Positions 6,480-60,510 of a stretch of 64,000 nt of DNA are shown piece by piece. The notes beneath the pieces were generated by a model. It was given only the letters and a program-made list of their open reading frames with translations, had not been told where the DNA came from and did no database searches. Origin of the DNA: Terriglobia bacterium (GTDB lineage: Bacteria; Acidobacteriota; Terriglobia; 20CM-2-55-15); contig CBDHGK010000041.1 of NCBI GenBank assembly GCA_965263045.1, forward strand, positions 4,346,408 through 4,410,407, read 5' to 3'. The position numbers were made by a program, and so were the translations under genes. How positions within the stretch are numbered: the first letter of the stretch is position 1; every line of letters starts with the position of its first letter.

Positions 6480-6522
6480 CTAGGTTCATATTGCCAGAAA
6501 GCTCCAATTACGAAATGTCTCT

Positions 6523-6900
6523 GTGATGGGGAAGCTTACGAGATCATCGGCTCACTGGGTATTGGCGGGACGGGTGAGGCCTGCCAGGCCACCGCCACGA
6601 ACCAGAATCGTCAACTTGCAATCAAGGTGCTTTCCGCGGAGTCCACCAGTGACATTGAATGTCTGGTCCGTTTTGAGCGCGAAGCCAAGACCCTGGCATC
6701 GCTCAGCTACCTAACATCGCATCGATACACGGTTTTGAGAAGTCCGCCGACGCTCACACCCTCGTTGTGGAGCGAGTCGCGGGACAGACCCTCGCCGACC
6801 GTAATTCCCAAGAGCCGATTCCCGTTGATGAAGCCCTACCGATAGCCGAACGGATCGCCGATGGGTCGCTTTTGCTTCCGATCGTGCAGAATACCTCGAG
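6523..6900 (+). pseudogene. Ser/Thr protein kinase N-lobe fragment, frameshifted and 3' truncated
   Basis: Translates to YEIIGSLGIGGTGEACQA...LAIKVL...RFEREAKTLASLS, then after a +2 frame shift HPNIASIHGFEKSADAHTLVVERVAGQTLADR...EALPIAERIADG. This covers the Gly-rich loop, VAIK lysine and HPNI motifs of Hanks-type kinases. Only about 120 codons remain. Confidence 0.6.
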
Positions 6901-6945
6901 CTATATGTAGAATTAGATTCGATGAACTGAAGGGTGAACGAAACT

Positions 6946-8565: not shown

Positions 8566-9140
8566 GACTGGCCGGCCGCATGCCTGCCCGTACCGGATAT
8601 GAGCCTTGCCGCTGCCTATCAGCCGCGCCATCCGGATGAGCGCCGTAGCACCGTTTCCATCTGGGCCCGCACTTCTCACAGGTTGTCTGCTCCAGCGCCG
8701 GATCCATCCGCCAGTGCTCGGTTGCGCTGGGCCAGGCTCCTCGACGTACTGTAGGGTACGCCTCCGTCGCCTGCCCGGCGCGCGCCTTGCCCTGACGGCG
8801 CCTCCGACGCTTCGCGACGAAATCCCGTGAGAAATGCGATTGCGCGACACCGGATAGTCTGACGCGACACAGCTTTCAACACGGGGTGGTGTCGACCCAC
8901 TCTGGTCTCGTGATGGGGAAAGGCTGTCTTACCGGGAAGGCAACCGCTTTCGTGAAGGGTTTGAGTACAGCTGATGTCGCTTGTTTCAGGTCGGGCCGGG
9001 CGAGCAATCGTTTTGGTGGATTCCTTTTCTTTCGAGGTTCTGACATTTGCCGACGGCCTCCTGAACTGTCGCCGGTAACAATGTATCCAGGGTCTCCCCT
9101 TCGGCGTGATTGACGACGCAGACAATCTGGTGTGGCGCTG

Positions 9141-11297
9141 TCAAAAACTCAGGCGGATGCCTCCGTTGATCGCCCGTCCTTCCAGCGGCGCCCAGGCGTC
9201 GACTGTCCAACGTCCGTCAAAGTTGCGCTGTGGTCTTACGAGCGGTTCGTATCGGGTTTGTCGGGTATTCCCGAGGTTCTCGCCATTAACGAACAAGCGG
9301 AATCGACCAATGCGCTGTTCCGCCAGAATGCCAAACACCCAATAAGGCTCGGCCTCCGTCCGGTAAGGGTTATCGTCGAGACGCTGGCTTCCTGTGTAGA
9401 ACATCTCGAAGCCAATACGGGAGCGGCCTTCCCGCTCCCAAACGCCAACGAATCCGGACGCGTGGCGGGGCGTAAGGGCCACTGTTTCCCGGCCGTCGAT
9501 TCCCAGTTCGGTGGAACGCAGGAACGTATGCGTGAGGGTTGCCGCGAAGTCTCCCCGACGCCACCGTGTCAGCAGTTCAACCCCTGCCGTGTGGACGTTT
9601 CCTTCGGAGTTGACGATTTCCAGCCTACCCGAAGAACCTGGCCGTGCCGCGCGCAGTTCGATCGGATTGCTGATCGAAGATCCAAATATCGTGCCGGTCA
9701 GTTCGATCAGAGGTGTGCTCCATCCGATGTCCGCCGAAATGCTCCATGCGCGCTCGGCTTCCAGGTCGGTCAGAGGCGCCAAATCGGAAAGGCCCACAGC
9801 TTCGGTTTCTTCGGTGAAAGGCGTCGGGGCAAAGACCCCTGTGCCCCCCGATAGCCTCGCTGTGAACGCGTTTGGAAGGCGAAATAGCGCAGAGATGCGT
9901 GGGTTGAAGAACGTTCCGTAGTCACTATGAACGTCCAGCCGGGCACTCCCGGACAACGTGGTCCGAGAACCGACCGTGTAGTCATCCTGTACGAAGACCG
10001 CCGGGACAGTGTAGGTGTAGTCAAACCGGTCGATGTCCCGTCCCCGGTAGGAGTCGGTCTGAAGCGCCGTGCCAACGAGCCACGCATGCGCTCCTTGCTC
10101 GCCCATGATCGATGCCTCGCCGAACCATGTCTGATGCCGATCCCGTTCAGTCCGCTGACCGAACTGATGACTGTGCCATTGCGTCACTGTGGATGCCCGA
10201 AGGGACAGAACGCGGGTTCCGATGAGAAATCGCCCTACGAGTCCGGCATCCAGGCGTTCGCTTGTGAGTTCTTCCTGAAACGGCTGACCGTCGGGTAGGG
10301 ATGCGCCTCGAATCGTCCCGCCCTCGCGGTCTTCGGCCATCACACCCAGAGTCGCAAAAACGGAGTTTCCGTCCTGGTCTTCCCACACGAAGCGCGGCCG
10401 AAGAACACCCCTGCGGAAACCCGGCAAATCGGCCCAGCCATCATTGTCCACGTCGGCGGTTTCCTGAAGATGTGCTCCGCCGATAAGGCTGTAGCCCCAC
10501 CGGTTCGTTCCCGGCTCGGCCAGCCAGAAGACAGCATCACTGCCGTTCAGCGAAGTGCGGTTCAGCAGCAGTTCCCGCTCCCGCTCCGCCGGGCGGCGGG
10601 AGACAAGGTTGATCACCCCTCCCAATGCCGAAGATCCGTAAAGTGCGGAACCGACACCTTTGATCACCTCCACTTGACCCAGGTCGAGGGGCGGAATCTG
10701 AAGCAGTCCGATCGCTCCGGTCTGTCCGCCATACAGGGGCAGACCGTCCGCGAGCAGCTGAGTGTATCTTCCCCGGAGTCCTTGGACCCGGACGTTCGCC
10801 GCGCCCAGGGATGGCGATGTTACTTGCACCCGAAGTCCCGCCGTCTCGTTCAGCAGCATCGCGATGTCCCCAGGCGTCATCAGCGCCTTTTCCACGATTT
10901 CTTCTTGCTGGATGACCTCGACACGCATCGGCGTATCTTCGATACGCCGCTCGGTTCGTGTAGCGGTGACCGTGATCTCCTGGTTGAGAATTTCGATCTG
11001 CAATTCCACCTCGATGCGTGTGCTCGAATCCATGCTGATCATTGCCATGACTGTTTGCGGCAGAAATCCAGGGCTCTCGATCGTGACCGTGACAGGTCCG
11101 GTCGGTGGTTCGAGCACGGCTTCGCCGGATTGGTCGGTCAGGGCGCGTCGGTCGCCAGCGACCACTTCGGCAAGAGCAATCGGTTGAGCCTGACTCTGCA
11201 CGTTCACGACCAGCGTGCCTCGATTCTGTTGCGCATCGATTTTGGGAGCGGAAAACAACAAGACAAGAGTCCAGAGGCAAAACCAGAACCGCATGAC
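9141..11297 (-). CDS. TonB-dependent outer-membrane receptor with N-terminal carboxypeptidase-regulatory-like domain
   Basis: Signal peptide MRFWFCLWTLVLLFSAPKIDAQ. Plug-region motifs (DTPMRVEVI, GLRGRYTQLLADGLPLYGG, VEVIKGVGSALYGSSALGGVINLV). C-terminal ...GGIRLSF. GGAGG RBS upstream of the ATG at 11297. Confidence 0.85.
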   Translation of the reverse strand, partial: VMRFWFCLWTLVLLFSAPKIDAQQNRGTLVVNVQSQAQPIALAEVVAGDRRALTDQSGEAVLEPPTGPVTVTIESPGFLPQTVMAMISMDSSTRIEVELQIEILNQEITVTATRTERRIEDTPMRVEVIQQEEIVEKALMTPGDIAMLLNETAGLRVQVTSPSLGAANVRVQGLRGRYTQLLADGLPLYGGQTGAIGLLQIPPLDLGQVEVIKGVGSALYGSSALGGVINLVSRRPAERERELLLNRTSLNGSDAVFWLAEPGTNRWGYSLIGGAHLQETADVDNDGWADLPGFRRGVLRPRFVWEDQDGNSVFATLGVMAEDREGGTIRGASLPDGQPFQEELTSERLDAGLVGRFLIGTRVLSLRASTVTQWHSHQFGQRTERDRHQTWFGEASIMGEQGAHAWLVGTALQTDSYRGRDIDRFDYTYTVPAVFVQDDYTVGSRTTLSGSARLDVHSDYGTFFNPRISALFRLPNAFTARLSGGTGVFAPTPFTEETEAVGLSDLAPLTDLEAERAWSISADIGWSTPLIELTGTIFGSSISNPIELRAARPGSSGRLEIVNSEGNVHTAGVELLTRWRRGDFAATLTHTFLRSTELGIDGRETVALTPRHASGFVGVWEREGRSRIGFEMFYTGSQRLDDNPYRTEAEPYWVFGILAEQRIGRFRLFVNGENLGNTRQTRYEPLVRPQRNFDGRWTVDAWAPLEGRAINGGIRLSF

Positions 11298-11356
11298 ATT
11301 CCTCCGTGGGGAGTACGCGATTAACCAGGCGAACGGGAAGTGAGGAGAGCGGTCTT

Positions 11357-11713
11357 CTAAAGCAGAAGTACCATGGATGGGTCTGCTGGGCCTACCGGGG
11401 GCGGCGGCGCCTCGGTCCAGGGAGCGCGGAGAAAGCGGGTTGCTGGAGGCGCGGTGGCAAGCGGCGGCGGGTGCCCGAAGGATGTTGTGACGTGAGACAG
11501 CGAAGAATCTGTCGGTGCCTTTCCGTCTGCAAGAAAAGCGGTGGAAACGCAGTCGATGCACGCACCGTTTGTCTGTGAACCGTGTTCGATCGGGCGTTCA
11601 GGACAAACGACGGCGCAGGTCACGGCTATTGCGAACACTCCGGCCAGGACGAGCACCGCTGAACGCTGGACGATCATCGCCGCGATTATAACCTGCATGC
11701 GGAGGATGACCAA
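11357..11713 (-). CDS. Hypothetical small membrane-anchored protein upstream of the TonB receptor
   Basis: ORF with a hydrophobic N-terminal segment (AVLVLAGVFAIAVTCAVV). GC-rich region, so it could be spurious. Confidence 0.2.
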   Translation of the reverse strand: MVILRMQVIIAAMIVQRSAVLVLAGVFAIAVTCAVVCPERPIEHGSQTNGACIDCVSTAFLADGKAPTDSSLSHVTTSFGHPPPLATAPPATRFLRAPWTEAPPPPVGPADPSMVLLL

Positions 11714-27977: not shown

Positions 27978-29852
27978 GGAACTAGACCCTGAACAAGCGT
28001 GATTGATGAGGAATTGAAAGTGGAATAACCGCCGAAGTACCCGAAATGCCCCCTCTCCGTGCGAAAAAAACCTTGGACAGATTCTTTGGAGAAGGAGGCA
28101 TTTCAGATGAACGATTATACGCGCAAGAACATGAGGAACCGCAAGCGGCGAATTGAGCGTCGGCTTGGGGATCGGAATTGGAAAGATCAGGCGAAGCCGA
28201 TGCTGTCGGCGCGCAACATCCGGTACGAGATGGGAGACCGGATGAGGGGTCTGTCGGTGGGCGGCATCGGAATGATGCATCAGGTGGCGCGGCGGACCGG
28301 ACTGATCGAAGCCATCGACAAGGACGTGCATGTGCTGAAGCGGCATCTGCCCTACCAGGAATCGGATCACGTGTTGAACATCGCCTACAACGCGTTGAGT
28401 GGGGGCACGTGTATGGAAGATATCGAACTGCGGCGCAATGACGAAGTGTATCTGGACGCGTTGGGAGCACAGCGGATTCCGGATCCGACCACGGCGGGAG
28501 ACTTCTGCCGGCGATTTGAGGAAGACGACGTGGAGTCGCTGATGGACACGTTCAATAAAGTGCGGCTGAAAGTCTGGCGCCAGCAGCCCGATGCGTTTTT
28601 CGAGGAAGCGGTTCTGGAGGCGGACGGGACATTGGCCCCAACCACCGGAGAATGCAAAGACGGGATGGACGTGGCCTACGACGGGACATGGGGTTATCAC
28701 CCACTGTTGATTTCGCTGGCGAACACGGCCGAACCGTTATACCTGGTGAACCGGAGCGGCAACCGGCCCTCGCATGAGGGAGCGGCCAAACGGTTCGATC
28801 AGGCAATCGCGTTGTGCCAGCGTGCGGGGTTCGATCAGATCCTGCTGCGCGGGGACACCGACTTCAGCCAGACCCGGTATTTGGATGGATGGGACGACCA
28901 GGGCGTGGGCTTCATCTTCGGCATCGACGCGATGAAAAACCTGGTGGCCCGGGCCGACCAATTGGAGCCGGACTGCTGGGCGCGCCTGGAACGTCCCGCC
29001 AAGTACGAGGTAGCCAGCCAACCCCGCCAGCGTCCCGACAAGGTCAAGGAACGGATCGTTCGGGAGCGTGACTTTGAGAATATCCGCTTGCGGGGCGAGG
29101 ATGTGGCCGAGTTTGCGTATCGGCCCGGAGCCTGCGATCGGGACTACCGCGTCGTTGTGGTGCGAAAGAATCTGTCGGTGGCCAAAGGGGAGCAGGTGTT
29201 GTTCGACGACATCCGGTACTTCTTCTACATTACCAACCGTGCGGATCCTGCGGACCAGATCGTGATGCGTGCGAATCAACGGTGCAATCAAGAGAATCTT
29301 ATTGAGCAGCTCAAGAACGGCGTACACGCCTTGGGGATGCCGGTCGGGGATCAGACCAGCAACTGGGCCTACATGGTGATGGCCTCACTGGCCTGGACAC
29401 TGAAGGCGTGGTTTGCGTTATTGCTGCCCGAAACCGGACGTTGGGGCCAGAAGTATCAGGCCGAGAAGCAGACCGTGCTACGCATGGAGTTCAAAACGTT
29501 CCTGAACGCCTTCATGCTCGTGCCTTGCCAGCTCGTGCGTACTGGTCGGCGCATCGTCTTCCGGCTGATGGCCTGGAACCCGTGGTTGCCAGTCTTGTTT
29601 CGTGCCGTGGATGTGTTGCGTCAACCTCTGCGATGCTGACCCGATCATGGATCTGAGCCCGGGCGGTCGAGGTCCCGGTTTCTTTCAACCCTTCAAACAG
29701 ACACGGCGAGGCGGCAACTGAAACAGATACAACACGAACCGCATACCTGGAAAAAGCGATCTGGGAACGGGAGCTTATGCCTCCAATTTTACGGCCGTGA
29801 ACCGGCCGTTTGTCCACTGGTTATGCGCTTGTTTTGGGACTAGAATAACGCC
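27978..29852 (+). mobile_element. IS1380-like/IS4-superfamily element (approximate ends)
   Basis: Imperfect IRs CCTAGGAACTAGACCCTGAACAAGCG (left) versus the reverse complement of CGCTTGTTTTGGGACTAGAATAA (right), bracketing a 526-aa DDE transposase. Confidence 0.5.
28059..29639 (+). CDS. DDE transposase, IS1380-like (IS4 superfamily)
   Basis: The segment LEADGTLAPTTGECKDGMDVAYDGTWGYHPLL parallels the DxDxT..G.QEG...Y.G..GY.PL signature seen in 3292..4707. Confidence 0.55.
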   Translation: MRKKPWTDSLEKEAFQMNDYTRKNMRNRKRRIERRLGDRNWKDQAKPMLSARNIRYEMGDRMRGLSVGGIGMMHQVARRTGLIEAIDKDVHVLKRHLPYQESDHVLNIAYNALSGGTCMEDIELRRNDEVYLDALGAQRIPDPTTAGDFCRRFEEDDVESLMDTFNKVRLKVWRQQPDAFFEEAVLEADGTLAPTTGECKDGMDVAYDGTWGYHPLLISLANTAEPLYLVNRSGNRPSHEGAAKRFDQAIALCQRAGFDQILLRGDTDFSQTRYLDGWDDQGVGFIFGIDAMKNLVARADQLEPDCWARLERPAKYEVASQPRQRPDKVKERIVRERDFENIRLRGEDVAEFAYRPGACDRDYRVVVVRKNLSVAKGEQVLFDDIRYFFYITNRADPADQIVMRANQRCNQENLIEQLKNGVHALGMPVGDQTSNWAYMVMASLAWTLKAWFALLLPETGRWGQKYQAEKQTVLRMEFKTFLNAFMLVPCQLVRTGRRIVFRLMAWNPWLPVLFRAVDVLRQPLRC

Positions 29853-30014
29853 GGATCAGTAACGATAACTCGCCCAGAGTTTACCGATCCGGCAGCAACG
29901 GGTGAGCCTACACTTCGGCGTTTGAACGAAGCCGCTGGCGCGGCGGACGCTGCGCGTGGGCTGACCGAGGGGTGATCGTCAGACTGTAGAGTGTGGGCCT
30001 CAAAGGAGGCCCAC

Positions 30015-30911
30015 ATGACTGATTTGCGGAAACGGATGCTGGAAGAACTCCAGCGCCGCAATTTCTCTCCAACAACAATCCGAACCTATCTGCGAGTCGT
30101 TGAAGACTTCGCTCGCTATTTTGGCACGCGCCCCGATCGTCTCAGCCAGCAACACCTGCGGCAGTATCAGTTGCATTTGATCCAGGAGCGAAAGCTCGCG
30201 ATCAAGACTGTAGGTCTGCACATTGCCGCGCTGCGATTCTTCTTTGTGAAGACGCTACGGCGTCCATACCTGAAGCTGGATCTCCCGTATCCCAAGATGC
30301 CGAAGCGACTGCCGACTGTTCTGAGCAAAGAGGAGGTCACCCAACTGATCGGCTCCGCAAACAACCTGCTCGATTACACGATGCTGATGACCTTGTATGC
30401 CACTGGAATGCGTCGGGCCGAGTTGATCGGGTTGAAGGTCCAGGACATCGATAGCCAGCGCATGATCATCCACATCCGTCAGGGCAAGCGCAACCGGGAT
30501 CGCGATGTGCCATTGCCGCCAAAGCTGCTGAATACACTACGGGAGTACTGGCTCTGGATGAAGCCTGGGACCTATTTGTTTCCCGGCATGGTCGACAACT
30601 GGCGTGCCGACAAACCCCTCACGTCCAAGTGCGTGTGGTTGGCGGTACAAAATGCGGCGAAACGTGCCGGAATCAAGAAGCGTGTATCGCCGCACACGCT
30701 GCGTCACAGCTGGGCCACCCACCTACTGGAGAATGGCACCGATCTGCGCACCATTCAGATGTTGATGGGTCACTCGGACCTGCGAGCCACCAGCGTCTAT
30801 CTGCACTTGTCTCGCCGTCATTTGCAGACGGTCGCCAATCCCGTAGAGACCCTGCCGGTTTCCAGGCTCGATACGGTGAAGCGCTCCAGAAAAAGGAAGC
30901 AGAAACAATGA
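30015..30911 (+). CDS. Tyrosine recombinase (XerD/phage-integrase family) associated with IS91-family element
   Basis: Core-binding N-terminus (TIRTYLRVVEDFARYFG) and catalytic R...HxxR...Y motifs (HTLRHSWATHLLENGTDLRTIQMLMGHSDLRATSVY). AGGAGG RBS. The stop overlaps the transposase start (ATGA). Confidence 0.8.
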   Translation: MTDLRKRMLEELQRRNFSPTTIRTYLRVVEDFARYFGTRPDRLSQQHLRQYQLHLIQERKLAIKTVGLHIAALRFFFVKTLRRPYLKLDLPYPKMPKRLPTVLSKEEVTQLIGSANNLLDYTMLMTLYATGMRRAELIGLKVQDIDSQRMIIHIRQGKRNRDRDVPLPPKLLNTLREYWLWMKPGTYLFPGMVDNWRADKPLTSKCVWLAVQNAAKRAGIKKRVSPHTLRHSWATHLLENGTDLRTIQMLMGHSDLRATSVYLHLSRRHLQTVANPVETLPVSRLDTVKRSRKRKQKQ

Positions 30912-32089
30912 CGCGGTCCGCCGTGGAGGTGGCCGACATCCTGCGCGCGCGGGGCAACGACTTCATCGACCGTCATCGAAACAGAATCGATTTCCAGCAG
31001 CTGAAGGTGATGCATGCCATCGTGCGTTGCCGAACAGCCGCTCTTGGCGGTCATATCGATGCCTGCCCGCGATGTGGGGGCGAGGGGACCATCTCCTACA
31101 ACTCATGCCGTAATCGCCATTGTCCGAAATGCCAGACTCAGGCGCGTCAGCGCTGGATCGCAGCCAGAGAACGTGAACTTCTCGCGACACGATACTTCCA
31201 TGTCGTGTTCACGCTGCCAAAGGAACTACATGCGCTTGTCCTGCAGAATCCGGTTGAACTCTATAACCTGCTGTTCCGCACCGTGGCCGAGACGCTGCGG
31301 GAGGTCGCGAGAAATCCCAAACACCTTGGCGCCGAGATCGGCTTCTTCCTCATCCTGCACACATGGGGACAAAACGTGCTGTTTCATCCTCACCTCCACT
31401 GCGTCGTTCCCGCCGGTGGAATCGCACCGGACCGTTCGCGATGGATTCGGCCGCGCTACCCTTTCTTCCTGCCTGTAAAGGTTCTGGGGAAAATATTCCG
31501 GGGAAAGTTCGTTGACGGATTGCGGAAGGCGTTTCGCAGAGAGTGCCTGACCTTCGCGGGACAGATCCAGCAGTTATCCGAACCGAAGAGCTTCGCGGCT
31601 TTCCTGCGACCGTTATTTCGCCAACCTTGGGTCGTCTATGCGAAGCCGGCATTCGGTGGGCCCGAACAGGTATTACGCTATCTCGGACGCTATACCCACC
31701 GTGTTGCCATCTCCAATCATCGATTGTTGTCCTTCGACGGCGGCCAGGTCACGTTCCGTTGGCGGGATTACGCGCGTGGCAACAAATCAAGAACGATGAC
31801 GGTTTCCGCCGCCGAGTTCATCCGCCGCTTCCTCCTCCACGTGCTGCCGAAAGGTTTTGTCCGCATCCGACATTTCGGTTTCATGGCGAACGCACAACGT
31901 TCCGCATCCATGGAACTTTGTCATCGTTTGTTAGGAATGGCGTCGACCGATCCTCACGAGGAAGCCCCTGCGAGCGACTCGGCCGGGTTATGTCCCGTCT
32001 GTCAGACCCCGATGAAGGTCATCGAGAGGCTGACCGCTGCGCAGATCGCATGGAGCTTCACTTCCATATGCTTTGCAGATACGTCGTAG
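30908..32089 (+). CDS. IS91-family transposase (Zn-binding N-terminus plus HUH-Y2 domain)
   Basis: CPRCGG...CRNRHCPKCQ zinc-binding domain, and HTWGQNVLFHPHLHCVVPAGG, the hallmark of IS91/ISCR transposases. Confidence 0.85.
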   Translation: MTRSAVEVADILRARGNDFIDRHRNRIDFQQLKVMHAIVRCRTAALGGHIDACPRCGGEGTISYNSCRNRHCPKCQTQARQRWIAARERELLATRYFHVVFTLPKELHALVLQNPVELYNLLFRTVAETLREVARNPKHLGAEIGFFLILHTWGQNVLFHPHLHCVVPAGGIAPDRSRWIRPRYPFFLPVKVLGKIFRGKFVDGLRKAFRRECLTFAGQIQQLSEPKSFAAFLRPLFRQPWVVYAKPAFGGPEQVLRYLGRYTHRVAISNHRLLSFDGGQVTFRWRDYARGNKSRTMTVSAAEFIRRFLLHVLPKGFVRIRHFGFMANAQRSASMELCHRLLGMASTDPHEEAPASDSAGLCPVCQTPMKVIERLTAAQIAWSFTSICFADTS

Positions 32090-32520
32090 CAGAGATTCCA
32101 GTTACACACTTTCCAGACGTGCTCGCGCACGCCGCCGCCCACGTGTGTCTTGATCTCAAAAATGCTTCCAAATCGAGCCTCGACCCGCACCGCAGACTCT
32201 CTAAAACTGCTGCTCCGGAACCCACACTCCTCGTCGCCACCCCGCCACTCGCCCTTGTCGAGTCCCGTCCCGTGACAATTTCAACCCGCATTCCCGTACT
32301 TTCTCCATAGCCCACCGCGTCCGCCGCAAACGCCACCGGCTTCCTTCAAACGTCGTTATCGAAAGTGCCCGAAAATCTCGTCCCCACGACGCTTTCTCGC
32401 TCGGCACTTCCGATGAACGCTAAATGTTTGAACGAAGCCGCTGGCGCGGCGGACGCTGCGCGTGGGCTGACCGAGGGGTGATCGTCAGACTGTAGAGTGT
32501 GGGCCTCAAAGGAGGCCCAC

Positions 32521-33417
32521 ATGACTGATTTGCGGAAACGGATGCTGGAAGAACTCCAGCGCCGCAATTTCTCTCCAACAACAATCCGAACCTATCTGCG
32601 AGTCGTTGAAGACTTCGCTCGCTATTTTGGCACGCGCCCCGATCGTCTCAGCCAGCAACACCTGCGGCAGTATCAGTTGCATTTGATCCAGGAGCGAAAG
32701 CTCGCGATCAAGACTGTAGGTCTGCACATTGCCGCGCTGCGATTCTTCTTTGTGAAGACGCTACGGCGTCCATACCTGAAGCTGGATCTCCCGTATCCCA
32801 AGATGCCGAAGCGACTGCCGACTGTTCTGAGCAAAGAGGAGGTCACCCAACTGATCGGCTCCGCAAACAACCTGCTCGATTACACGATGCTGATGACCTT
32901 GTATGCCACTGGAATGCGTCGGGCCGAGTTGATCGGGTTGAAGGTCCAGGACATCGATAGCCAGCGCATGATCATCCACATCCGTCAGGGCAAGCGCAAC
33001 CGGGATCGCGATGTGCCATTGCCGCCAAAGCTGCTGAATACACTACGGGAGTACTGGCTCTGGATGAAGCCTGGGACCTATTTGTTTCCCGGCATGGTCG
33101 ACAACTGGCGTGCCGACAAACCCCTCACGTCCAAGTGCGTGTGGTTGGCGGTACAAAATGCGGCGAAACGTGCCGGAATCAAGAAGCGTGTATCGCCGCA
33201 CACGCTGCGTCACAGCTGGGCCACCCACCTACTGGAGAATGGCACCGATCTGCGCACCATTCAGATGTTGATGGGTCACTCGGACCTGCGAGCCACCAGC
33301 GTCTATCTGCACTTGTCTCGCCGTCATTTGCAGACGGTCGCCAATCCCGTAGAGACCCTGCCGGTTTCCAGGCTCGATACGGTGAAGCGCTCCAGAAAAA
33401 GGAAGCAGAAACAATGA
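32521..33417 (+). CDS. Tyrosine recombinase, copy 2
   Basis: Identical translation to 30015..30911. Confidence 0.8.
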   Translation: MTDLRKRMLEELQRRNFSPTTIRTYLRVVEDFARYFGTRPDRLSQQHLRQYQLHLIQERKLAIKTVGLHIAALRFFFVKTLRRPYLKLDLPYPKMPKRLPTVLSKEEVTQLIGSANNLLDYTMLMTLYATGMRRAELIGLKVQDIDSQRMIIHIRQGKRNRDRDVPLPPKLLNTLREYWLWMKPGTYLFPGMVDNWRADKPLTSKCVWLAVQNAAKRAGIKKRVSPHTLRHSWATHLLENGTDLRTIQMLMGHSDLRATSVYLHLSRRHLQTVANPVETLPVSRLDTVKRSRKRKQKQ

Positions 33418-34595
33418 CGCGGTCCGCCGTGGAGGTGGCCGACATCCTGCGCGCGCGGGGCAACGACTTCATCGACCGTCATCGAAACAGAATCGATTTC
33501 CAGCAGCTGAAGGTGATGCATGCCATCGTGCGTTGCCGAACAGCCGCTCTTGGCGGTCATATCGATGCCTGCCCGCGATGTGGGGGCGAGGGGACCATCT
33601 CCTACAACTCATGCCGTAATCGCCATTGTCCGAAATGCCAGACTCAGGCGCGTCAGCGCTGGATCGCAGCCAGAGAACGTGAACTTCTCGCGACACGATA
33701 CTTCCATGTCGTGTTCACGCTGCCAAAGGAACTACATGCGCTTGTCCTGCAGAATCCGGTTGAACTCTATAACCTGCTGTTCCGCACCGTGGCCGAGACG
33801 CTGCGGGAGGTCGCGAGAAATCCCAAACACCTTGGCGCCGAGATCGGCTTCTTCCTCATCCTGCACACATGGGGACAAAACGTGCTGTTTCATCCTCACC
33901 TCCACTGCGTCGTTCCCGCCGGTGGAATCGCACCGGACCGTTCGCGATGGATTCGGCCGCGCTACCCTTTCTTCCTGCCTGTAAAGGTTCTGGGGAAAAT
34001 ATTCCGGGGAAAGTTCGTTGACGGATTGCGGAAGGCGTTTCGCAGAGAGTGCCTGACCTTCGCGGGACAGATCCAGCAGTTATCCGAACCGAAGAGCTTC
34101 GCGGCTTTCCTGCGACCGTTATTTCGCCAACCTTGGGTCGTCTATGCGAAGCCGGCATTCGGTGGGCCCGAACAGGTATTACGCTATCTCGGACGCTATA
34201 CCCACCGTGTTGCCATCTCCAATCATCGATTGTTGTCCTTCGACGGCGGCTAGGTCACGTTCCGTTGGCGGGATTACGCGCGTGGCAACAAATCAAGAAC
34301 GATGACGGTTTCCGCCGCCGAGTTCATCCGCCGCTTCCTCCTCCACGTGCTGCCGAAAGGTTTTGTCCGCATCCGACATTTCGGTTTCATGGCGAACGCA
34401 CAACGTTCCGCATCCATGGAACTTTGTCATCGTTTGTTAGGAATGGCGTCGACCGATCCTCACGAGGAAGCCCCTGCGAGCGACTCGGCCGGGTTATGTC
34501 CCGTCTGTCAGACCCCGATGAAGGTCATCGAGAGGCTGACCGCTGCGCAGATCGCATGGAGCTTCACTTCCATATGCTTTGCAGATACGTCGTAG
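33414..34595 (+). pseudogene. IS91-family transposase, copy 2, with in-frame TAG nonsense at 34251..34253
   Basis: Comparison with copy 1 shows a single CAG-to-TAG change. The downstream ORF 34302..34595 is the same-frame remainder. Confidence 0.8.
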
Positions 34596-35233
34596 CAGAG
34601 ATTCCAGTTACACACTTTCCAGACGTGCTCGCGCACGCCGCCGCCCACGTGTGTCTTGATCTCAAAAATGCTTCCAAATCGAGCCTCGACCCGCACCGCA
34701 GACTCTCTAAAACTGCTGCTCCGGAACCCACACTCCTCGTCGCCACCCCGCCACTCGCCCTTGTCGAGTCCCGTCCCGTGACAATTTCAACCCGCATTCC
34801 CGTACTTTCTCCATAGCCCACCGCGTCCGCCGCAAACGCCACCGGCTTCCTTCAAACGTCGTTATCGAAAGTGCCCGAAAATCTCGTCCCCACGACGCTT
34901 TCTCGCTCGGCACTTCCGATGAACGCTAAATGTTTGTCGAGAGTTTACCTTCTGATTGCGTCTAACCCCCTCCTCTAGTATCTTTTGTCGAGTTTCTCAC
35001 GGTTCTTTCAGCGACACATTTTCAACATGAATCCGGCACCAAACTCGGCCACTACGAGATTCTGTCTATGCGCGATAACGGCAATGGGTCCAGTGTGGCC
35101 GTAAAAGGTTTGAATGAGGATGGGTCTCCCAAAATCGTACAGGGCTTATCTGCCAATATACGGAGTCCAGGGAGAATGCAATTACGTGGGAGGATTTGGC
35201 ATTCGTGATGAAAAATGGTGACGGTTCCGCGTC

Positions 35234-36685
35234 ATGAATAAAAGCGTCTTGAACAGGTCGAGAATTCGCTGGGATTTTATCATTGGCGGCAGCATGTGTC
35301 TGGGGTATGCGGCGTTGATGCTCTGCCAGACGACCGTCGGCGTTGCGGGACCGGCGATGCTTCTTGATACCGACATCGAACTGACGATAACGGCATTCGG
35401 TGCGATTCTGGGCTGGGGCATGGCGGGTAACCTTTTGGGCAAACTCACGAATGGAGTCCTTGCCGATAAATTCGGAGGGCGCAAGATATTTGTTCTGGCT
35501 ATCTGCGTTGCCGCCATCGCCATCTGCTCGTTTGGGATGGTTTCAGAAAGGAGCAGCTTTTTTCTGTTTTATTTCCTCACCCTTTTTGCCAAATCTGCTG
35601 GTTGGCCGGCCATGGCCAATCTCATCAAGGTGTGGTTCGCGAAGCAGAAGCACGGGCGAATGTGGGGAATTATTTCCACGAGTTCCCGCGCGAGCGCCGT
35701 GGGAGCTACGCTTCTTCTCAGCAGTCTGTTGCTCATCGTGTCGTGGAGAGGGCTATTTTTTGTGGCTGCTGCTATCACGGCTATCGTTGTCGCAGTGCTT
35801 GCTAAGCTGCTTAAGGGCGCCCCGTCAGAGCTTATCTTGTCGCTTCCCGACAACTCGAAGACCGGGAGACCAATGTCAGGTCGGACACAGGTTCATCCTT
35901 TGGACGAACTGAAAACCTTCGAAGCATTGGCTGTCTTTTTTAAGAGTCCGCGCTTTTGGTTGATCAGCATCAGTCTGATGGGCTTGGCAGTTTTGTTTGA
36001 ATTTCAAGTCTTTATTCCCATCTATCTCAGTGAGTCATTCGGTTTATCGCCCGCTCAGGCCGGCACAGCATCGTCCATTTTCCCACTAGGTTGTCTGATC
36101 GGAGTTTTCGCTGGAGGATTTGTCTATGACAAGCTCTCGAAAAAGGCGTTGACTGCTACTTTGGGCGGCATGTCGGGTTTGGGTTTGCTGTGTCTTACGT
36201 TCCTATTGATGCTTTCCAATATCGACTTGAATACGCGATTGGAACTTATGCTCACCATTGGCACGATTTTCGTATTCGGCTGTGCAATCTCACCGGCCTA
36301 TTATTTGCCAATGAGCGTGTTTTCAATAAACTTTGGCGGCAGGCATTGCGGCCTATTAATCGGACTCATCGATGCAATCGGATATACCGGCGCGATGGTG
36401 TTTGATTTTGTGGGAGGTTCGGTCGCTGACCAGCAGGGGGGATGGCAGATTTTCCTGACTATTCTCGTCCTTGTCTCCTTGACGGTGACGGTTACCATGA
36501 CGCTATTTCTGTATCTAGGAGTCTGTCGGGAATTGGCTCCCTCGAACCAAGAATCAACAACTTACGAGGCATCCTTGGTCTGTAAGTTATTGATTCTTGG
36601 TTGCAGAATTCTTATTCCCGACAGGCTCCTAGATTTTCGCCATTCGTTACCACTACGGAAATACAATTTGGAATTTCAAGTATGA
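35234..36685 (+). CDS. MFS transporter
   Basis: 483 aa with 12 predicted TM segments and an MFS-like loop (GKLTNGVLADKFGGRK). AT-richer than the flanks. The 3' tail overlaps the convergent GntR gene and may be read-through. Confidence 0.65.
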   Translation: MNKSVLNRSRIRWDFIIGGSMCLGYAALMLCQTTVGVAGPAMLLDTDIELTITAFGAILGWGMAGNLLGKLTNGVLADKFGGRKIFVLAICVAAIAICSFGMVSERSSFFLFYFLTLFAKSAGWPAMANLIKVWFAKQKHGRMWGIISTSSRASAVGATLLLSSLLLIVSWRGLFFVAAAITAIVVAVLAKLLKGAPSELILSLPDNSKTGRPMSGRTQVHPLDELKTFEALAVFFKSPRFWLISISLMGLAVLFEFQVFIPIYLSESFGLSPAQAGTASSIFPLGCLIGVFAGGFVYDKLSKKALTATLGGMSGLGLLCLTFLLMLSNIDLNTRLELMLTIGTIFVFGCAISPAYYLPMSVFSINFGGRHCGLLIGLIDAIGYTGAMVFDFVGGSVADQQGGWQIFLTILVLVSLTVTVTMTLFLYLGVCRELAPSNQESTTYEASLVCKLLILGCRILIPDRLLDFRHSLPLRKYNLEFQV

Positions 36686-37307
36686 GCACTCGAAAAAGTA
36701 CTGAAGGAACGCGGGTCCCGTGAAGCAGGCCGGACACGGAGCTCGCATGCAACAGGACGACGTGCGGCACGTCCGGCGTGAGGGCGGCACGCACCTCTTC
36801 TGCGTGATCGTAAAGCGCCACGGGTAGTGCCCCGGTGAGGAGGTTCCGCCGTCGGCAATCCCCGACCCCAAAGCCGACCACCGGCATGGAGATCGCGATC
36901 CGGATTTCGTCGATCAGGATCGCGCGCAGGTCGACATCGGGTTCGATCACAGCGGCCCGGTCCGGGGGCTGAACCGAAAGCCAGTGGCCGATGCGGGCCT
37001 CGATTTCGTCGAGCGGATTGCCGCGGTCCCGCGCCACCAGGAGAAGCGTTGAGATGAGGTGGTCGAGTTCCAACTTGGGACAGGAGATGACGTCGGGATC
37101 CCGATTCCGGACATGGAACCCGGAGCCCTGGCGCCGTTCGACCCAGCCCGCGTCGGCCAGCCCGCGGTAGGCTGCCCGCACGGTGTTCGGGTGTATCCCG
37201 AAACGCCGCCCGATCTCAAACGTAGTGGGCAGTCGTTCGCCGGGAGGAAGATCCGCACTCACGATCCCAAGCACGATCGGTGTCTTCAGTTGCTCTTGAA
37301 GTGACAC
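36612..37307 (-). CDS. GntR-family transcriptional regulator (GTG start)
   Basis: N-terminal winged HTH (LPTTFEIGRRFGIHPNTVRAAYRGLADAGWVERRQGSGFHV) with a ~150-aa C-terminal effector domain. Divergent from the FG-GAP gene. Its first 41 nt lie inside the duplicated segment. Confidence 0.7.
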   Translation of the reverse strand: MSLQEQLKTPIVLGIVSADLPPGERLPTTFEIGRRFGIHPNTVRAAYRGLADAGWVERRQGSGFHVRNRDPDVISCPKLELDHLISTLLLVARDRGNPLDEIEARIGHWLSVQPPDRAAVIEPDVDLRAILIDEIRIAISMPVVGFGVGDCRRRNLLTGALPVALYDHAEEVRAALTPDVPHVVLLHASSVSGLLHGTRVPSVLFRVLILEIPNCISVVVTNGENLGACRE

Positions 37308-37486
37308 CTCACTCGTCTTCGAAGCCAGATCCTCTTAAGTGATCGCTCTCAGCGTCGGCCTGTTCCACCCGACTGTCATTTTCCAGGCGTTCCGGCAGAA
37401 TCTCGACCCGTTTGTGACAGTTGAAAAACTGCGACAGTCGGGCTTCTGGCCCCGACCGCCAAACCCTAGAGTGCAGGGGTGAGGTG
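37308..37486. promoter_or_regulatory. Divergent GntR / FG-GAP intergenic region with candidate operator palindromes
   Basis: GTCGGGcttctggcCCCGAC (6-bp inverted repeat, 8-nt spacer) and CAGTTgaaaAACTG, plus direct repeats TGTGACAG / TGCGACAG. The same sequence is present in copy 1 at 42..220. Confidence 0.3.
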
Positions 37487-39190
37487 ATGGACATGACGGA
37501 TCGATCAATTTCCTGGGATCGTGCCATTGGGATCAGCCGGGTTCTCCCTATATATCAACGAAGCCTGCTCTCCATACTGGTTTTCGGAGTATTGCTTTCG
37601 GGATGCCTGACAGCGCGAACGAGGCAGAGCGATCCGCCTGCTGCCGCGGTATTCAATTTCGAGCAGTACGAGGTCGCCATCGGCGCCGCGAATCGACAGA
37701 CCGTTCTAACGGGGTTCCTTTTCGGTGGCGCCGTGGCCGAACTTGCCGTGGTGACCACCGACGAGAGCGAGGACCGCCGCGTGCGCATCTACGCGTTCGG
37801 CGACGGCGCCTGGATGCTCAGACTCGAGGGAACGCTCGGTCCCGATGTGCTGTTCGTCGATGTGGCCAACATCGGCGGACGCGACCGGCTGGTCACCTAC
37901 GAGCCCGGCCGTCTGAACTGGTTCGATCCCGAATCGGCGACGGAACGTGCGCTGGTAGCGGTGACTTCCAACTTCAATCCGCCTCGCAAAGGCGAAATCC
38001 CGCATGTAGACATCACTCGGGACGTAAACGACGACGACCGCGACGACCTGGTCGTGCCGGACGTCGATGGCTTTTGGGTGTTCATCCAGATGAGCGCCGG
38101 CGCGTTCGCCGACCCAGTGAAGATCGGCCCCCCCACCGACATGAGTGGGATCTACGGGTCCGACGGATATCGGTACGACCCCTGGTCTCAGAGCCGTGTC
38201 CACGAGCTGGACTACAACCACGATGGTCGCAGCGACCTGGTGTTCTGGAACGAGAACCACTTCGAGGTGCACACCCAAGACGAGCGTGGGCTGTTTGCCC
38301 CGGCGGCCAGGACCTTCACTACCGATGTGGCATTCGACTCTGACGGTCTCTCCTCGCTCGCCACCGGAGACATGACAGGAAGGGTGCTGCACTCGTTGGC
38401 CGACTTGAACGGGGACGGCGTCGGGGATCTCGTAGTTCACTCGCTGGAGGGCAGGAGCATTTCCAGCAAGCATTCCACCTATGAGGTGCATTTCGGCACA
38501 CCCACAGCCGATGACGGCACCGTGTTCGCACAGGGCGTCGACATCGCGTTCCAGTCGGACGACAGAATTCAGCTCGGGATGGAACCCCACGACTTCGATC
38601 GAGACGGCCAGGTGGAGCTGATGATCACAACCATCCACGTCAGGTTCCTCGAAAACAGTCTCTGGAAGAGAATCAAGGGTTTCATGGGTGATGACATCTG
38701 GCTGGATCTCGAGTTCTACCGAATGGAAAAAGGTCGCTACCCCGACACACCCAACACCACCCGCAGAATCGCGTTAGACGGTGTGCCCAGCCATCGTGAG
38801 CCGGGGTGGGTAACCCTGGACCTCGTGCTTCGAGGGGCGACGCACGAGAGCCGGAACACTCAAAAGAGTTGGCCGCGTGCGTTCAACACGACGTTGCGCA
38901 TCGGGGATGTGACCGGCGACGGCCGCTCAGACCTGCTCATCGCGGATCACCCTCGGATCATGAACGCCAGTGTCGGCGTGGGGGGGCCGGGCCTGTTCGC
39001 CCCGCGGCATCAGGAGGTGGCCCTCGACATCCCCAACGACGAGGAATACACCTGGCTGGTGGACCTCAACCAGGACGGCAAACAGGACATCCTCATGCAT
39101 CGCCCGTTCACTCTAAGAGATGCTCACGGAGCCCGGAGACTGCCGCCCGGAACCGAGCCGCATCGGGTGACGATGCTGATCGCCCGATGA
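37487..39190 (+). CDS. FG-GAP/VCBS-repeat beta-propeller lipoprotein (copy 2, identical protein)
   Basis: Identical translation to 221..1924. Confidence 0.75.
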   Translation: MDMTDRSISWDRAIGISRVLPIYQRSLLSILVFGVLLSGCLTARTRQSDPPAAAVFNFEQYEVAIGAANRQTVLTGFLFGGAVAELAVVTTDESEDRRVRIYAFGDGAWMLRLEGTLGPDVLFVDVANIGGRDRLVTYEPGRLNWFDPESATERALVAVTSNFNPPRKGEIPHVDITRDVNDDDRDDLVVPDVDGFWVFIQMSAGAFADPVKIGPPTDMSGIYGSDGYRYDPWSQSRVHELDYNHDGRSDLVFWNENHFEVHTQDERGLFAPAARTFTTDVAFDSDGLSSLATGDMTGRVLHSLADLNGDGVGDLVVHSLEGRSISSKHSTYEVHFGTPTADDGTVFAQGVDIAFQSDDRIQLGMEPHDFDRDGQVELMITTIHVRFLENSLWKRIKGFMGDDIWLDLEFYRMEKGRYPDTPNTTRRIALDGVPSHREPGWVTLDLVLRGATHESRNTQKSWPRAFNTTLRIGDVTGDGRSDLLIADHPRIMNASVGVGGPGLFAPRHQEVALDIPNDEEYTWLVDLNQDGKQDILMHRPFTLRDAHGARRLPPGTEPHRVTMLIAR

Positions 39191-39218
39191 GCAAAATCAT
39201 AGCGGAGGAACAACGCAC

Positions 39219-39845
39219 ATGATCAAGGCACTCGCTGCAATACTGTTCTCGGTCCTGCTCTGCCTCGGGTCCGTTGTCGACGGCAGCGCTCAGCGGTCCA
39301 CGACTCAAGGCTGGGTATTCGGTCTGGAACTCGGAGGAACGGCCATCTCCTTCCAGAACGAGCCGAGTGACAGAGGAGGACTCGTGGGCGCTCGGGCCGG
39401 CTATGGCCTCAACGGGATCGTCACACCGTACCTGGGCATATACGAAGCCGACGTCGACGTCCGGGGGTTTGATGCCTTCGACAAAGTGACATTTGGCCAC
39501 ATCGACCTCGGGGTGAGGCTGCACTTGGCCAATAGCCGCCGCCGGTGGGTCCCTTATGGCGACCTTGCTGTTACATTCTGGCCTGTGAGCGACGTTAAGA
39601 AGCACCAGGAACGGACCACCACCGACTTCGGGGGAAGGGCGACCTCCAGCCTGGGAGGCGGACTCGCCATCTACCTGTCTGAGGCGTGGGCCCTCGATGT
39701 GAACTTCAAGAGAGGCACGGGAGGGTTCAGAGACATCGAGCTTGACAACATCTCGTGTGGCGGGACGAGCGAACATTTGCACACATTCCTCGACATCTGG
39801 GCCGAATCGGCTCGGTTCACCATCGGGCTTTCGTGGTGGCCGTAG
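39219..39845 (+). CDS. 8-strand outer-membrane beta-barrel protein (copy 2; 3 aa substitutions versus copy 1)
   Basis: RRF/RGF, FKDIEVDNISRGG / FRDIELDNISCGG differences, plus synonymous and 3'-UTR SNPs. Confidence 0.65.
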   Translation: MIKALAAILFSVLLCLGSVVDGSAQRSTTQGWVFGLELGGTAISFQNEPSDRGGLVGARAGYGLNGIVTPYLGIYEADVDVRGFDAFDKVTFGHIDLGVRLHLANSRRRWVPYGDLAVTFWPVSDVKKHQERTTTDFGGRATSSLGGGLAIYLSEAWALDVNFKRGTGGFRDIELDNISCGGTSEHLHTFLDIWAESARFTIGLSWWP

Positions 39846-40332
39846 CCCGAGAGCGGAAGTGGGTTGCGCCGCGAGATGCGAGGGCACCGTTTGGGGGACG
39901 GATAGGAGATTCAAAACGCCCAGGCGGCCTGCGGAGCAAGGTCGGGTGAGCCTTTCTGCGGTAGCAGGGATGATTCTGGTCGGCGTCATCGCTAGAATCG
40001 CCTTGTTCTGGTAGTTCCCGTACTTGAGGCACTTGCCTGCACGATCATTCGTCCCGGGCTGAACAAATCACCCTGAGAAACAATACCGTCAAATCGTGCG
40101 AAATGACCTGAAAGCAAAGCCCATATGAATCCCCGTGTACTGGTCAGTTACTCCCTCGTATTGGCGCTGGTGATCGCGTCCCGGACCGCATGTGCGCAGC
40201 CCAGCGCGGGAACTCCGAACGTCAACGAGGCAGGTTCCGATAGTCGGGCGACGACACCATAAAGGAGCTTTTCTTCCTGATTCGGAGGCCGGTAGTCGTC
40301 GATAGCCACAAAGGAACTCTGGAAGCTCCGCT

Positions 40333-49422: not shown

Positions 49423-50578
49423 CTAGTGGTCCCCGTCAAACAGACTGTAACTTATCGAGCTTCTTTCGGGCACGTTGAACTTTTTCAAGAATATCGGAAG
49501 CCGTTGCGGTCCAAATGAAGGGCTTCGGGTTCTGATTGTGACCCCCGACATATTCCTCCACGGCCTGGATTAGCTCAGGAACCGAATGGAAAACCCCGCG
49601 CCGAAGCCGTTGTTCGGAAAGATCCCGGAAGAAGCGTTCGACCATGTTCAGCCAGGATGCACTGGTCGGTGTGAAGTGCACATGAAAGCGCGTGTTGCGC
49701 TTCAACCAGTTGACGACTTTCTGATGTTTGTGCGTGGCGTAGTTGTCGCAAATGATATGGATCTGTTTGTCTTTCGGCACGGAACGTTTGATCTGATTGA
49801 GAAACCGGATCCATTCCTGATGACGATGCTTCGGCATACAGGTCCCGATAATCGAGCCGTCCAGCGTATTGAGCGCGGCGAACATCGTGGTCGTCCCGTT
49901 GCGTTTGTAGTCGTGGGTGAGGGTGCCGCACCGCCCCTTCTTCAGAGGTACCCGGGTTGCGTGCGGTCCAGGGCCTGCATCTGGCTCTTCTCATCGCAGG
50001 ACAAAACAATGGCGTTTTCCGGAGGGTTCAGATACAAACCGACCACATCCTCCAACTTCTCGACAAATTGTTTGTCGTTGGAAAGTTTGAAGGTGCGTGC
50101 CAGATGAGGCTTCAAGCCATGAGCCCGCCAGATTCTCCCTACCGTGGACTCGCTGACGCCGGTTGCCCTGGCCATCAAGGACCGGCTCCAGTGCGTGGCG
50201 TTCGGAGGCTTCCCTTCGACCGTCTTCTTCACGATCCGGGCCCGCTTCCGGCGGCCGATCGAGGGAATCCGTCCACTGCGGGAAGCGTCCTTTTCGATTC
50301 CCCCGAGGCCATCTTCAACGAAACGATCGCGCCAACGTCCGGCCTTTTGACGAGTGATGTCCAACTTGGCAGCGATCTCCTGATTGTCCAGACCCCCGGC
50401 GGCCAGCAAGACAATTCGAGATCGTTCCGCCAACCGGACCGCCACACTGCGGCTTCGGCTCAGTCGCTCCAGTTCCTTCCGCACAGGAATGTCCAATTTA
50501 ATCGTCGGTGCTCTCCTCATATATACTCAGACGTAGGAAAGCTGAATAAGTTACATTAACTGTGACGGACTACACTAG
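49423..50578 (-). mobile_element. IS630-family element, copy A (transposase frameshifted)
   Basis: Ends CTAGTGGTCCCCGTCAAACAGACTGTAACTTAT... and ...CTGTGACGGACTACACTAG. 1156 bp versus 1157 bp for intact copy B. Confidence 0.8.
49436..50520 (-). pseudogene. IS630-family transposase with frameshift (two ORF pieces 49436..49885 and 49942..50520)
   Basis: Near-identical to the intact 361-aa ORF 57865..58950 but split between frames around 49885-49942. Confidence 0.8.
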
Positions 50579-50755
50579 CAGCTGGCCGTGAACGCCGTAA
50601 GTATCCGTATCCTTGAAAGCGGCGCTATCGGTAAACTGGGTTGGCAATAGATCCCCGTTTCCAGAGTTGATTTCAACCTCTTGAGCGAAAAGTGAATTGG
50701 GCTGGGCCAACAGCAAAACGAACAACCCTACACCTGCGAGAACGCCTCTTCTCAT
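50579..50755 (-). pseudogene. N-terminal part (signal peptide) of the secreted-protein gene split by IS630 copy A
   Basis: MRRGVLAGVGLFVLLLAQPNSLFAQEVEINSGNGDLLPTQF...VHGQL, then runs into the IS terminus. Confidence 0.5.
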
Positions 50756-57738: not shown

Positions 57739-57806
57739 TATCTTCCTCGCGATACGGTCGCATGGGGTCCGTTGTTAACTATGAAGTTGACTTGCACCAC
57801 GGGCTG

Positions 57807-60506: not shown

Positions 60507-60510
60507 CTAG

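Follow-up and report, generated by a model that had tools for sequence, protein, structure and literature searches.

We found a head-to-tail dimer of an IS91-family insertion sequence, which carries a tyrosine recombinase gene upstream of its transposase gene, in a 64,000-nucleotide (nt) stretch of a Terriglobia bacterium genome (contig CBDHGK010000041.1, positions 4,346,408 to 4,410,407; hereafter the window). The dimer appears to owe its origin to the element's own conservative, tetranucleotide-specific transposition and not to an unrelated duplication. We hold with moderate confidence that it arose by re-insertion of a further copy, or by integration of a circular form, at the tetranucleotide that survives at the end of a resident copy.

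Self-comparison of the window (w[i] = w[i+2506], 29920-32430) gives a repeat with a period of 2506 base pairs (bp) across positions 29920-34936, a span of 2 x 2506 + 5 bp. It is laid out as GTTT, a body of 2502 bp, GTTT, a second body of 2502 bp and a last GTTT, followed by one G that matches by chance. The first body (29924-32425, all features of the element being on the + strand), whose boundaries were set by the divergence of the flanks, runs from GAACGAAGCC to GAACGCTAAAT. The second (32430-34931) is identical to it except for a single position, C at 31745 versus T at 34251, and an exact 2.5-kb repeat of this kind cannot be a product of chance. The tetranucleotide flanks the array on the left (29920-29923), as either the target tetranucleotide or a terIS-type cleavage tetranucleotide, and on the right (34932-34935), while at the internal junction (32426-32429) a single GTTT serves both copies, closing copy 1 on its right and opening copy 2 on its left. 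The array of near-exact 2506-bp units with one C-to-T difference, as proposed in the original prediction, is thus borne out, and its coordinates (29924-34935) were right within a few bases. GTTT followed by GAAC, described as present at each junction, holds for the left boundary and the internal junction, but the right boundary has GTTTG only and continues with TCGAG (GTTTG stands at 29920, 32426 and 34932). A role of GAAC as IS91-type target tetranucleotide was not established, as GAAC belongs to the left end, and the tetranucleotide that matters is GTTT.

The manner of insertion became visible in relatives of the element, for which we scanned one genome per species and obtained 76 loci, all in metagenome-assembled genomes (MAGs) of Acidobacteriota. 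In two closely related MAGs, one site is seen without the element (GGTATGG-CGACT-ATACGG) and with it; the core is present once when the site is empty, and once on each side of the element when it is occupied. This comparison demonstrates an insertion that is conservative, without target duplication, at a tetranucleotide, which is GTTT in the element studied here and CGAC or GACN in sister subfamilies. GTTT is found on either side of the element in two independent settings, the window and a 60.7-kb plasmid-like metagenome contig (L001) with ParA, toxin-antitoxin genes and many insertion sequences. On the latter, a single copy that is 100% identical to copy 1 lies at 5013-7523, bounded by GTTTG on both sides, so that single copies with the same ends do exist elsewhere. 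The same four nucleotides also flank the 26 copies of an 85% relative in the complete MAG OZ252023.1. Since the left and right cores of these 26 copies are often unlike, the core is not a target-site duplication. The base that follows the core, the fifth, is invariably G on the left, being element-derived, and varies on the right because it is target-derived there; the candidate 5-bp target duplication GTTTG was ruled out on both grounds. The left flank of the target is partly conserved, weakly in the GTTT group and strongly in one CGAC subfamily (AACTTCCGGNTTGC directly before CGAC).

Two further candidate properties of the target were rejected. A few sites are near-perfect palindromes, as dif-like or REP-like targets would be, but the 62 sites have on average 8.53 of 16 complementary positions against 8.44 in mismatched or shuffled controls. 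Covariation of the target left flank with the 3' arm of the right-end hairpin described below was dropped, since it was inconsistent between subfamilies when judged by eye.

Exact dimers recur. Among 79 distinct full-length copies we counted five abutting head-to-tail dimers in three lineages, namely three in OZ252023.1, one in a Bryobacterales MAG and the one in the window, and all five have the geometry right end, 4-nt core, left end. A search for the junction pattern in JGI metagenomes yielded 9 further contigs, one of which, a 2631-bp contig (L087) with a terminal overlap of 127 bp, represents a 2504-bp circle or array. Some candidates were discarded: three supposed heterologous abutting tandems (L032, L043, L059) are neighbouring insertions 38-70 nt apart, and a metagenome contig of about 2.5 kb (L081), considered as a free circle, is an ordinary contig with flanks.

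This recurrence bears on the suspicion that the array is an assembly artefact or a duplication independent of transposition, by replication slippage or unequal exchange, which we consider highly improbable. The copies of the array are almost identical, as this explanation would have it, but they do differ at one base, and the resulting truncated transposase of 279 amino acids (aa) is among the deposited gene calls of the 6.47-Mb NCBI/ENA contig. Other near-identical repeats of the window (1.2-2.7 kb at 99.6-100% identity) are resolved separately, which points to a long-read assembly. An artefact is unlikely, moreover, because exact head-to-tail dimers recur in independent assemblies, among them heterodimers, which could not result from errors of collapse or expansion; unequal exchange would have had only 4-5 nt of homology available. 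The source genome holds at least four transposase variants of the element, at least two of them beyond the window's pair on the same 6.47-Mb contig, and the lineage is evidently active in this genome. A look-up of further source-genome copies (P0122, P0124 and the 279-aa product) returned no match.

The heterodimers are informative about how such arrays form. Copies in OZ252023.1 differ from each other by 0-9 nt (mean 3.7), and the partners of its three tandem pairs by 3, 7 and 7 nt, so that they are non-sister copies. For this reason, a single local rolling-circle duplication followed by decay, as the original prediction had it, is not established. Heterodimers must originally have formed when another copy or a circle joined a resident copy, and this is to be expected because the tetranucleotide and its upstream context survive insertion. 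Two OZ252023.1 loci with different flanks contain the same variants in permuted order, X-Y at one and Y-X at the other, with 0 differences between the loci. In the simplest reading, the heterodimer moved as a unit via a circle that was reopened at the other junction, which implies a circular intermediate; two independent re-insertions of X and Y are possible, if less parsimonious. A single-stranded rolling circle would fit both the permuted heterodimer and the circularly assembled 2504-bp contig, which are indirect evidence.

Each unit of the window array encodes two coupled proteins. The recombinase gene (30015-30911, and 32521-33417 in copy 2, where it is intact and identical) specifies 298 aa with the Pfam domains Phage_integrase and Phage_int_SAM_4, an NCBIfam match and the full catalytic set R-K-H-R-H-Y (R133, K158, H227, R230, H253, Y262). 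Its nearest solved structures are archaeal XerA (4a8e, E = 2.5e-40), IntI4 (1e-33) and XerD, and its scores lie under the NCBIfam cut-offs for XerA, XerC, XerD and IntI. The transposase gene of copy 1 (30908-32089) encodes 393 aa with a zinc finger (C53/C56/C72/C75), the HUH motif HPHLH at residues 160-164 and the tyrosine motif YLGRY at 258-262 (Y258/Y262). It matches Zn_Tnp_IS91 (PF14319, E = 2.9e-30) and Y2_Tnp (PF04986, E = 1.7e-63) in Pfam, and the NCBIfam model of the IS91 family transposase (NF033538) with 439 bits against a cut-off of 125; a solved structure related to it by sequence was not found. The TGA of the recombinase overlaps the ATG of the transposase as ATGA (30908-30911), an arrangement present in 46 of the 62 distinct relatives. 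In all relatives fetched, and in annotated plasmid examples, the recombinase gene lies inside the element, upstream of the transposase gene tnpA and on the same strand. The domain matches and the ATGA overlap confirm the predicted IS91-family unit with a translationally coupled tyrosine recombinase.

In copy 2, the transposase gene (33414-34253) stops after 279 aa at a TAG (34251-34253), with the remaining frame extending to 34595. The stop stems from a CAG-to-TAG change at Gln280, as had been predicted, and since copy 1, the plasmid-like copy and a 92% relative all have Gln at codon 280, T at 34251 is the derived base. It removes the C-terminal 114 aa, i.e. about a third of the Y2_Tnp domain and a C-terminal CxxC motif, and lies downstream of the HUH motif and of Y258/Y262. 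The view that the second transposase was killed thus holds for the derived stop, whereas its inactivity we can only infer, the stop being located past both motifs; the truncated protein is likely inactive. A broken reading frame occurs in about 15% of the distinct relatives.

How, then, did the window pair arise? A second unit or circular intermediate might have landed exactly at the end of the resident copy, which would produce a perfect tandem sharing one GTTT, and failed termination during the copying of a circular form would give the same dimer. The second of these routes corresponds to a one-step rolling-circle event, in which the transposase starts from the ori end of a circular form and misses the first termination end (ter), the unit is copied twice, the dimer is inserted and the nonsense mutation follows later. 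We regard this as possible, though doubtful. It suits the window pair as a near-homodimer with 1 difference in 2506 positions, the identical bodies of the Bryobacterales dimer (L030) and the metagenome contig that is a circular or tandem 2504-bp unit. In IS91, moreover, read-through at terIS amounts to about 50% one-ended events with TnpA alone, and circles with an ori-ter junction are the insertion intermediate (PMC13181058). Yet such an event cannot result in the heterodimers seen three times in OZ252023.1, and read-through from a single chromosomal copy enters flanking DNA, so that a circular template must be assumed. The near-identity of the partners is itself uninformative, since all known copies of the lineage are nearly identical.

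Under re-insertion or circle integration, by comparison, a copy from the same active lineage would have joined an older resident, copy 2 with its TAG. We lean slightly towards re-insertion, because copy 1 equals the plasmid-borne copy and copy 2 has the derived mutation. Once formed, dimers may move as units through circles. Copy 2 could still be mobilisable in trans, as its ends and recombinase gene are intact and the IS91 transposase acts in trans (PMC13181058).

The core tetranucleotide itself shows an unexpected variability. In OZ252023.1, cores deviate from GTTT at 17 of 208 positions, compared with 59 of 65,026 positions in the bodies (98-fold excess, Fisher p = 6e-27), which corresponds to about 8% per position on both sides versus 0.09% in the body. 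In nine clean insertions with variant cores only one side deviates, the left about as often as the right, and the left-side variants are not linked to lineage. This pattern would follow if exchange took place at either edge of a 4-nt overlap, perhaps with involvement of the recombinase. Five copies with 100% identical bodies in the Bryobacterales MAG MFD01231 (L028-L031) are distinguished only by the opening base of the element (T/C) and by that of the left core, a boundary-restricted variation like that in OZ252023.1. One composite in OZ252023.1 (L018/L019, about 9000-11530) is unusual, as a copy lies inside the end of an IS1380-family element, at a position that is empty in five other copies. 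Its core, GCCTCC, is non-canonical, with aberrant junctions, GCTT or GCTTA on the left and GCTC on the right, and the whole composite is present twice.

One-side core variants could also be read as heteroduplex resolution by the tyrosine recombinase, although the composite just described varies on both sides. The recombinase, and not the HUH transposase, would then insert circles, either double-stranded or single-stranded and folded, at the junction or core by site-specific recombination, and arrays would reflect an equilibrium of integration and excision. Its intact catalytic set and the conservation and coupling of its gene across the clade fit this proposal, as does the permuted heterodimer, which needs a circle reopened at another junction. 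Integron integrases, and XerCD acting on CTX phage, use folded hairpin substrates, and the dimer junction is likewise predicted to fold into a long hairpin. We nevertheless judge the proposal improbable. Xer/dif- or integron-type sites have two inverted arms and tyrosine recombinases work on 6-8-bp overlaps, whereas the shared core measures 4 nt here, with the -1 position on the right and the +5 position on the left always of element type, and the junction arms are direct repeats. Dyad symmetry of the targets does not exceed the control, and the tetranucleotide logic fits IS91 transposases, which need no recombinase.

Several points weigh against the origin by re-insertion or circle integration that we favour. 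The window copies differ by one base, which is equally compatible with one-step read-through on a circle. The array is known from the assembly, and gene calls and recurrence support it indirectly. Any assignment of the ori and ter ends in this subgroup, and of the enzyme that inserts it, is provisional. Finally, the canonical one-strand model of IS91 does not lead one to expect a tetranucleotide that is hypervariable on both sides: in 111 of 111 experimental events, IS91 kept its terminal tetranucleotide, CTCG, without change (PMC13181058), so that only the target side should vary, but here both sides do. The order of events in the window and the division of labour between the two enzymes are our inference, and the window pair, a near-homodimer in a lineage whose copies are all nearly identical, fits either route.

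The ends of the element possess an elaborate architecture. The left end reads GTTT-GAACGAA-GCCGC-TGGC-GCGGC and contains the terminal repeat AAGCCGCTGGCGCGGCGGACGC (29929-29950), conserved in every subfamily, with the palindrome GCCGC-TGGC-GCGGC at 29931-44. An inverted copy of these 22 nt, GCGTCCGCCGCAAACGCCACCGGCTT (32317-32342), lies about 100 nt inside the right end, followed by a long hairpin and then by GAACGCTAAAT-GTTT. The hairpin (32354-32419) consists of an extension, CGTT/AACG, and a 15-bp stem formed by ATCGAAAGTGCC and GGCACTTCCGAT. Covariation supports it: 93% of cells are paired, compared with 30-46% when the partners are slid, 4 pairs show compensatory changes, and the extension helix is 98.9% paired. 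The folding energy predicted for the window junction is -18.7 kcal/mol (z = -3.75) for the + strand and -21.5 kcal/mol (z = -4.93) for the - strand, where a conserved A.C mismatch of the + strand hairpin becomes a G.T wobble. GAAC or CAAG near the right end, initially candidates for classical IS91 tetranucleotides, were reinterpreted, as they covary with CGTT or CCTT in the extended hairpin stem.

Two observations concern the distribution of these end structures. One metagenome contig (L086, Ga0137409_10008837, 1-600) contains adjoining gene-less miniatures, units of about 330 nt composed of a left end and a right-end module, which look non-autonomous and similar to miniature inverted-repeat transposable elements. 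Two plasmid-borne relatives from Paraburkholderia and Sinorhizobium (L079, L080) have similar left and right inverted repeats, while the hairpin module of about 110 nt, including the sequence described next, seems to be absent; their boundaries are provisional.

A second unexpected feature, an internal sequence of 8-9 nt, TTCAAACGT (32345-32353), lies directly upstream of the right-end hairpin and is complementary to the junction ATGTTTGAA (32424-32432), which is made up of the core and the initial bases of the left end. We refer to it as a putative guide. The two covary across subfamilies, with TTCAAAC matched by GTTTGAA, TTCAAGTC by GACTTGAA, TTCTAGTC by GACTAGAA and TCCTAGTC by GAC-N-AGGA, and their pairing is also predicted in the fold. 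Guide position 2 agrees with the matching left-end base in 71 copies and disagrees in 0. In the guide helix (columns 1-9 with 36-44), two-sided changes are seen in 6 of 9 pairs, and the observed score was matched by 0 of 500 shuffles; this test used a constructed ungapped alignment of 23 types, with single-copy junctions rebuilt from the two ends of each element, a structure derived from these same sequences and few independent events. Part of the pairing involves the initial bases of the opposite end, so that circles and tandem junctions alone offer the complete match.

These data allow a speculative model, to which we give limited credence. Base pairing with the guide, and not the protein alone, might specify the tetranucleotide that is cut and joined (GTTT by guide AAAC, GACT by guide AGTC), so that a changed guide would retarget the element. 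Exchange could take place at either edge of the core, the recombinase might handle the folded junction or the second strand, and tandem junctions would be reactive. To our knowledge, pairing between a guide and a cleavage site is not known for IS91-type elements, of which the classical members lay outside our covariation test. If the guide reading is true, a guide swap is predicted to change the target tetranucleotide.

The element belongs to a subgroup that is not new. Its transposase is 26-28% identical to IS91- and IS1294-type transposases, and 46-56% identical to plasmid transposases of Paraburkholderia, Sinorhizobium, Rhizobium and Mesorhizobium. Both plasmids that we opened (Paraburkholderia and Sinorhizobium; transposases 53-56% identical) have a RefSeq site-specific integrase directly upstream. 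IS91 members with an integrase open reading frame (ORF) are listed in ISfinder. In Bacteroidota, tet(X) is accompanied by pairs of XerD and IS91 (ISWz1), which were published as two separate elements. To judge from these likenesses, the two-gene subgroup of integrase and IS91 transposase is already known, and the element is a new Acidobacteriota lineage of it. We found no paper in the literature on the mechanism of this integrase-carrying subgroup, its target rules or its tandem arrays.

There is nothing unusual in the dimer as such, which captures an active insertion sequence at one moment in a chromosome of Acidobacteriota rich in such elements. The family is of more interest: IS91 and ISCR elements disseminate genes for resistance and virulence, tetranucleotide recognition is a general question for them, and the role of the recombinase is one for the subgroup, which includes the pairs beside tet(X). 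The relatives offer a natural collection of sites with and without the element, of dimers including the permuted heterodimer, and of covarying guide and junction pairs.

The surroundings of the array are dense in other mobile elements. An IS1380-family transposase gene, matched by Pfam and NCBIfam, lies outside the element at 28059-29639 on the + strand, and a different IS1380-family element is found at window 3194-4938. The latter is 99.9% identical to an element on the plasmid-like contig (L001 10201-11945), suggesting that the two replicons have exchanged DNA. A 2.7-kb direct repeat of 99.6% identity (1-2729 and 37267-39995), which reaches the window start and may continue beyond it, holds an FG-GAP-repeat ORF (155-1924, 37421-39190), and the IS91 dimer is located within the 34.5 kb between its copies. 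Two inverted repeats, 4932-6483 versus 58960-60511 and 49423-50582 versus 57803-58963 (100% and 99.7% identity), are other insertion sequences, with a DDE_Tnp_1 plus DUF772 transposase and an IS630-like DDE_3 transposase. At 36513-36634, a 53-nt inverted repeat (81% complementary, 16-nt spacer) lies at the overlapping 3' ends of an MFS transporter and a GntR-family ORF.

Among the closest known systems, the plasmid-borne integrase and IS91 pairs have the same gene order and strand. Their genes are 7-8 nt apart by annotation, in contrast to the overlap in the window element. DDE insertion sequences also form reactive tandem dimers, such as (IS30)2, (IS21)2 and the IS911 junctions, and the likeness lies in a head-to-tail dimer whose internal junction equals the junction of the circle. 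Here, however, a DDE domain is missing from the transposase, the junction has a shared 4-nt core in place of a spacer, and no sigma-70-like promoter created at the dimer junction was found in 29700-35200. In IS608, a member of the IS200/IS605 family with an HUH-Y1 transposase, the cleavage site is recognised by pairing with an internal guide beside a subterminal hairpin; this guide recognition reportedly emerged from the work of Guynet, Barabas and Ton-Hoang. The element studied here appears similar in its internal 8-9-nt sequence at the foot of the terminal hairpin, complementary to and covarying with the putative cut tetranucleotide, but its enzyme is a 393-aa Y2 transposase of the IS91 type and not a small Y1 TnpA.

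The classical elements IS91, IS801 and IS1294 offer the most extensive comparison. One-ended transposition of IS91 reportedly yields tandem multimers. Zinc finger and Y2_Tnp domain, insertion without target duplication, tetranucleotides at both ends and subterminal palindromes are common to these elements and to ours. The IS91 family makes no target-site duplication and has its target tetranucleotide beside the oriIS end downstream of tnpA, where palindromes also occur, while the terIS end bears its own similar tetranucleotide and a single palindrome (PMC13181058). The end anatomy observed here conforms to this plan, with a tetranucleotide and a palindrome on the left, and two palindromic regions followed by GTTT on the right. 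Even the overlapping genes have a counterpart, since in IS91 itself the stop of an upstream ORF, which lowers read-through at the termination end, overlaps the start of tnpA (PMC13181058). This upstream ORF is Orf121 in IS91, however, and a full tyrosine recombinase in our element, and the tetranucleotides are CTTG/GTTC there and GTTT, or CGAC/GACN in the sister subfamilies, here. Our element further departs from the classical members in the left flank of its target, which is also conserved in some subfamilies, and in an extra right-end module of about 110 nt, which comprises the hairpin and the sequence complementary to the junction.

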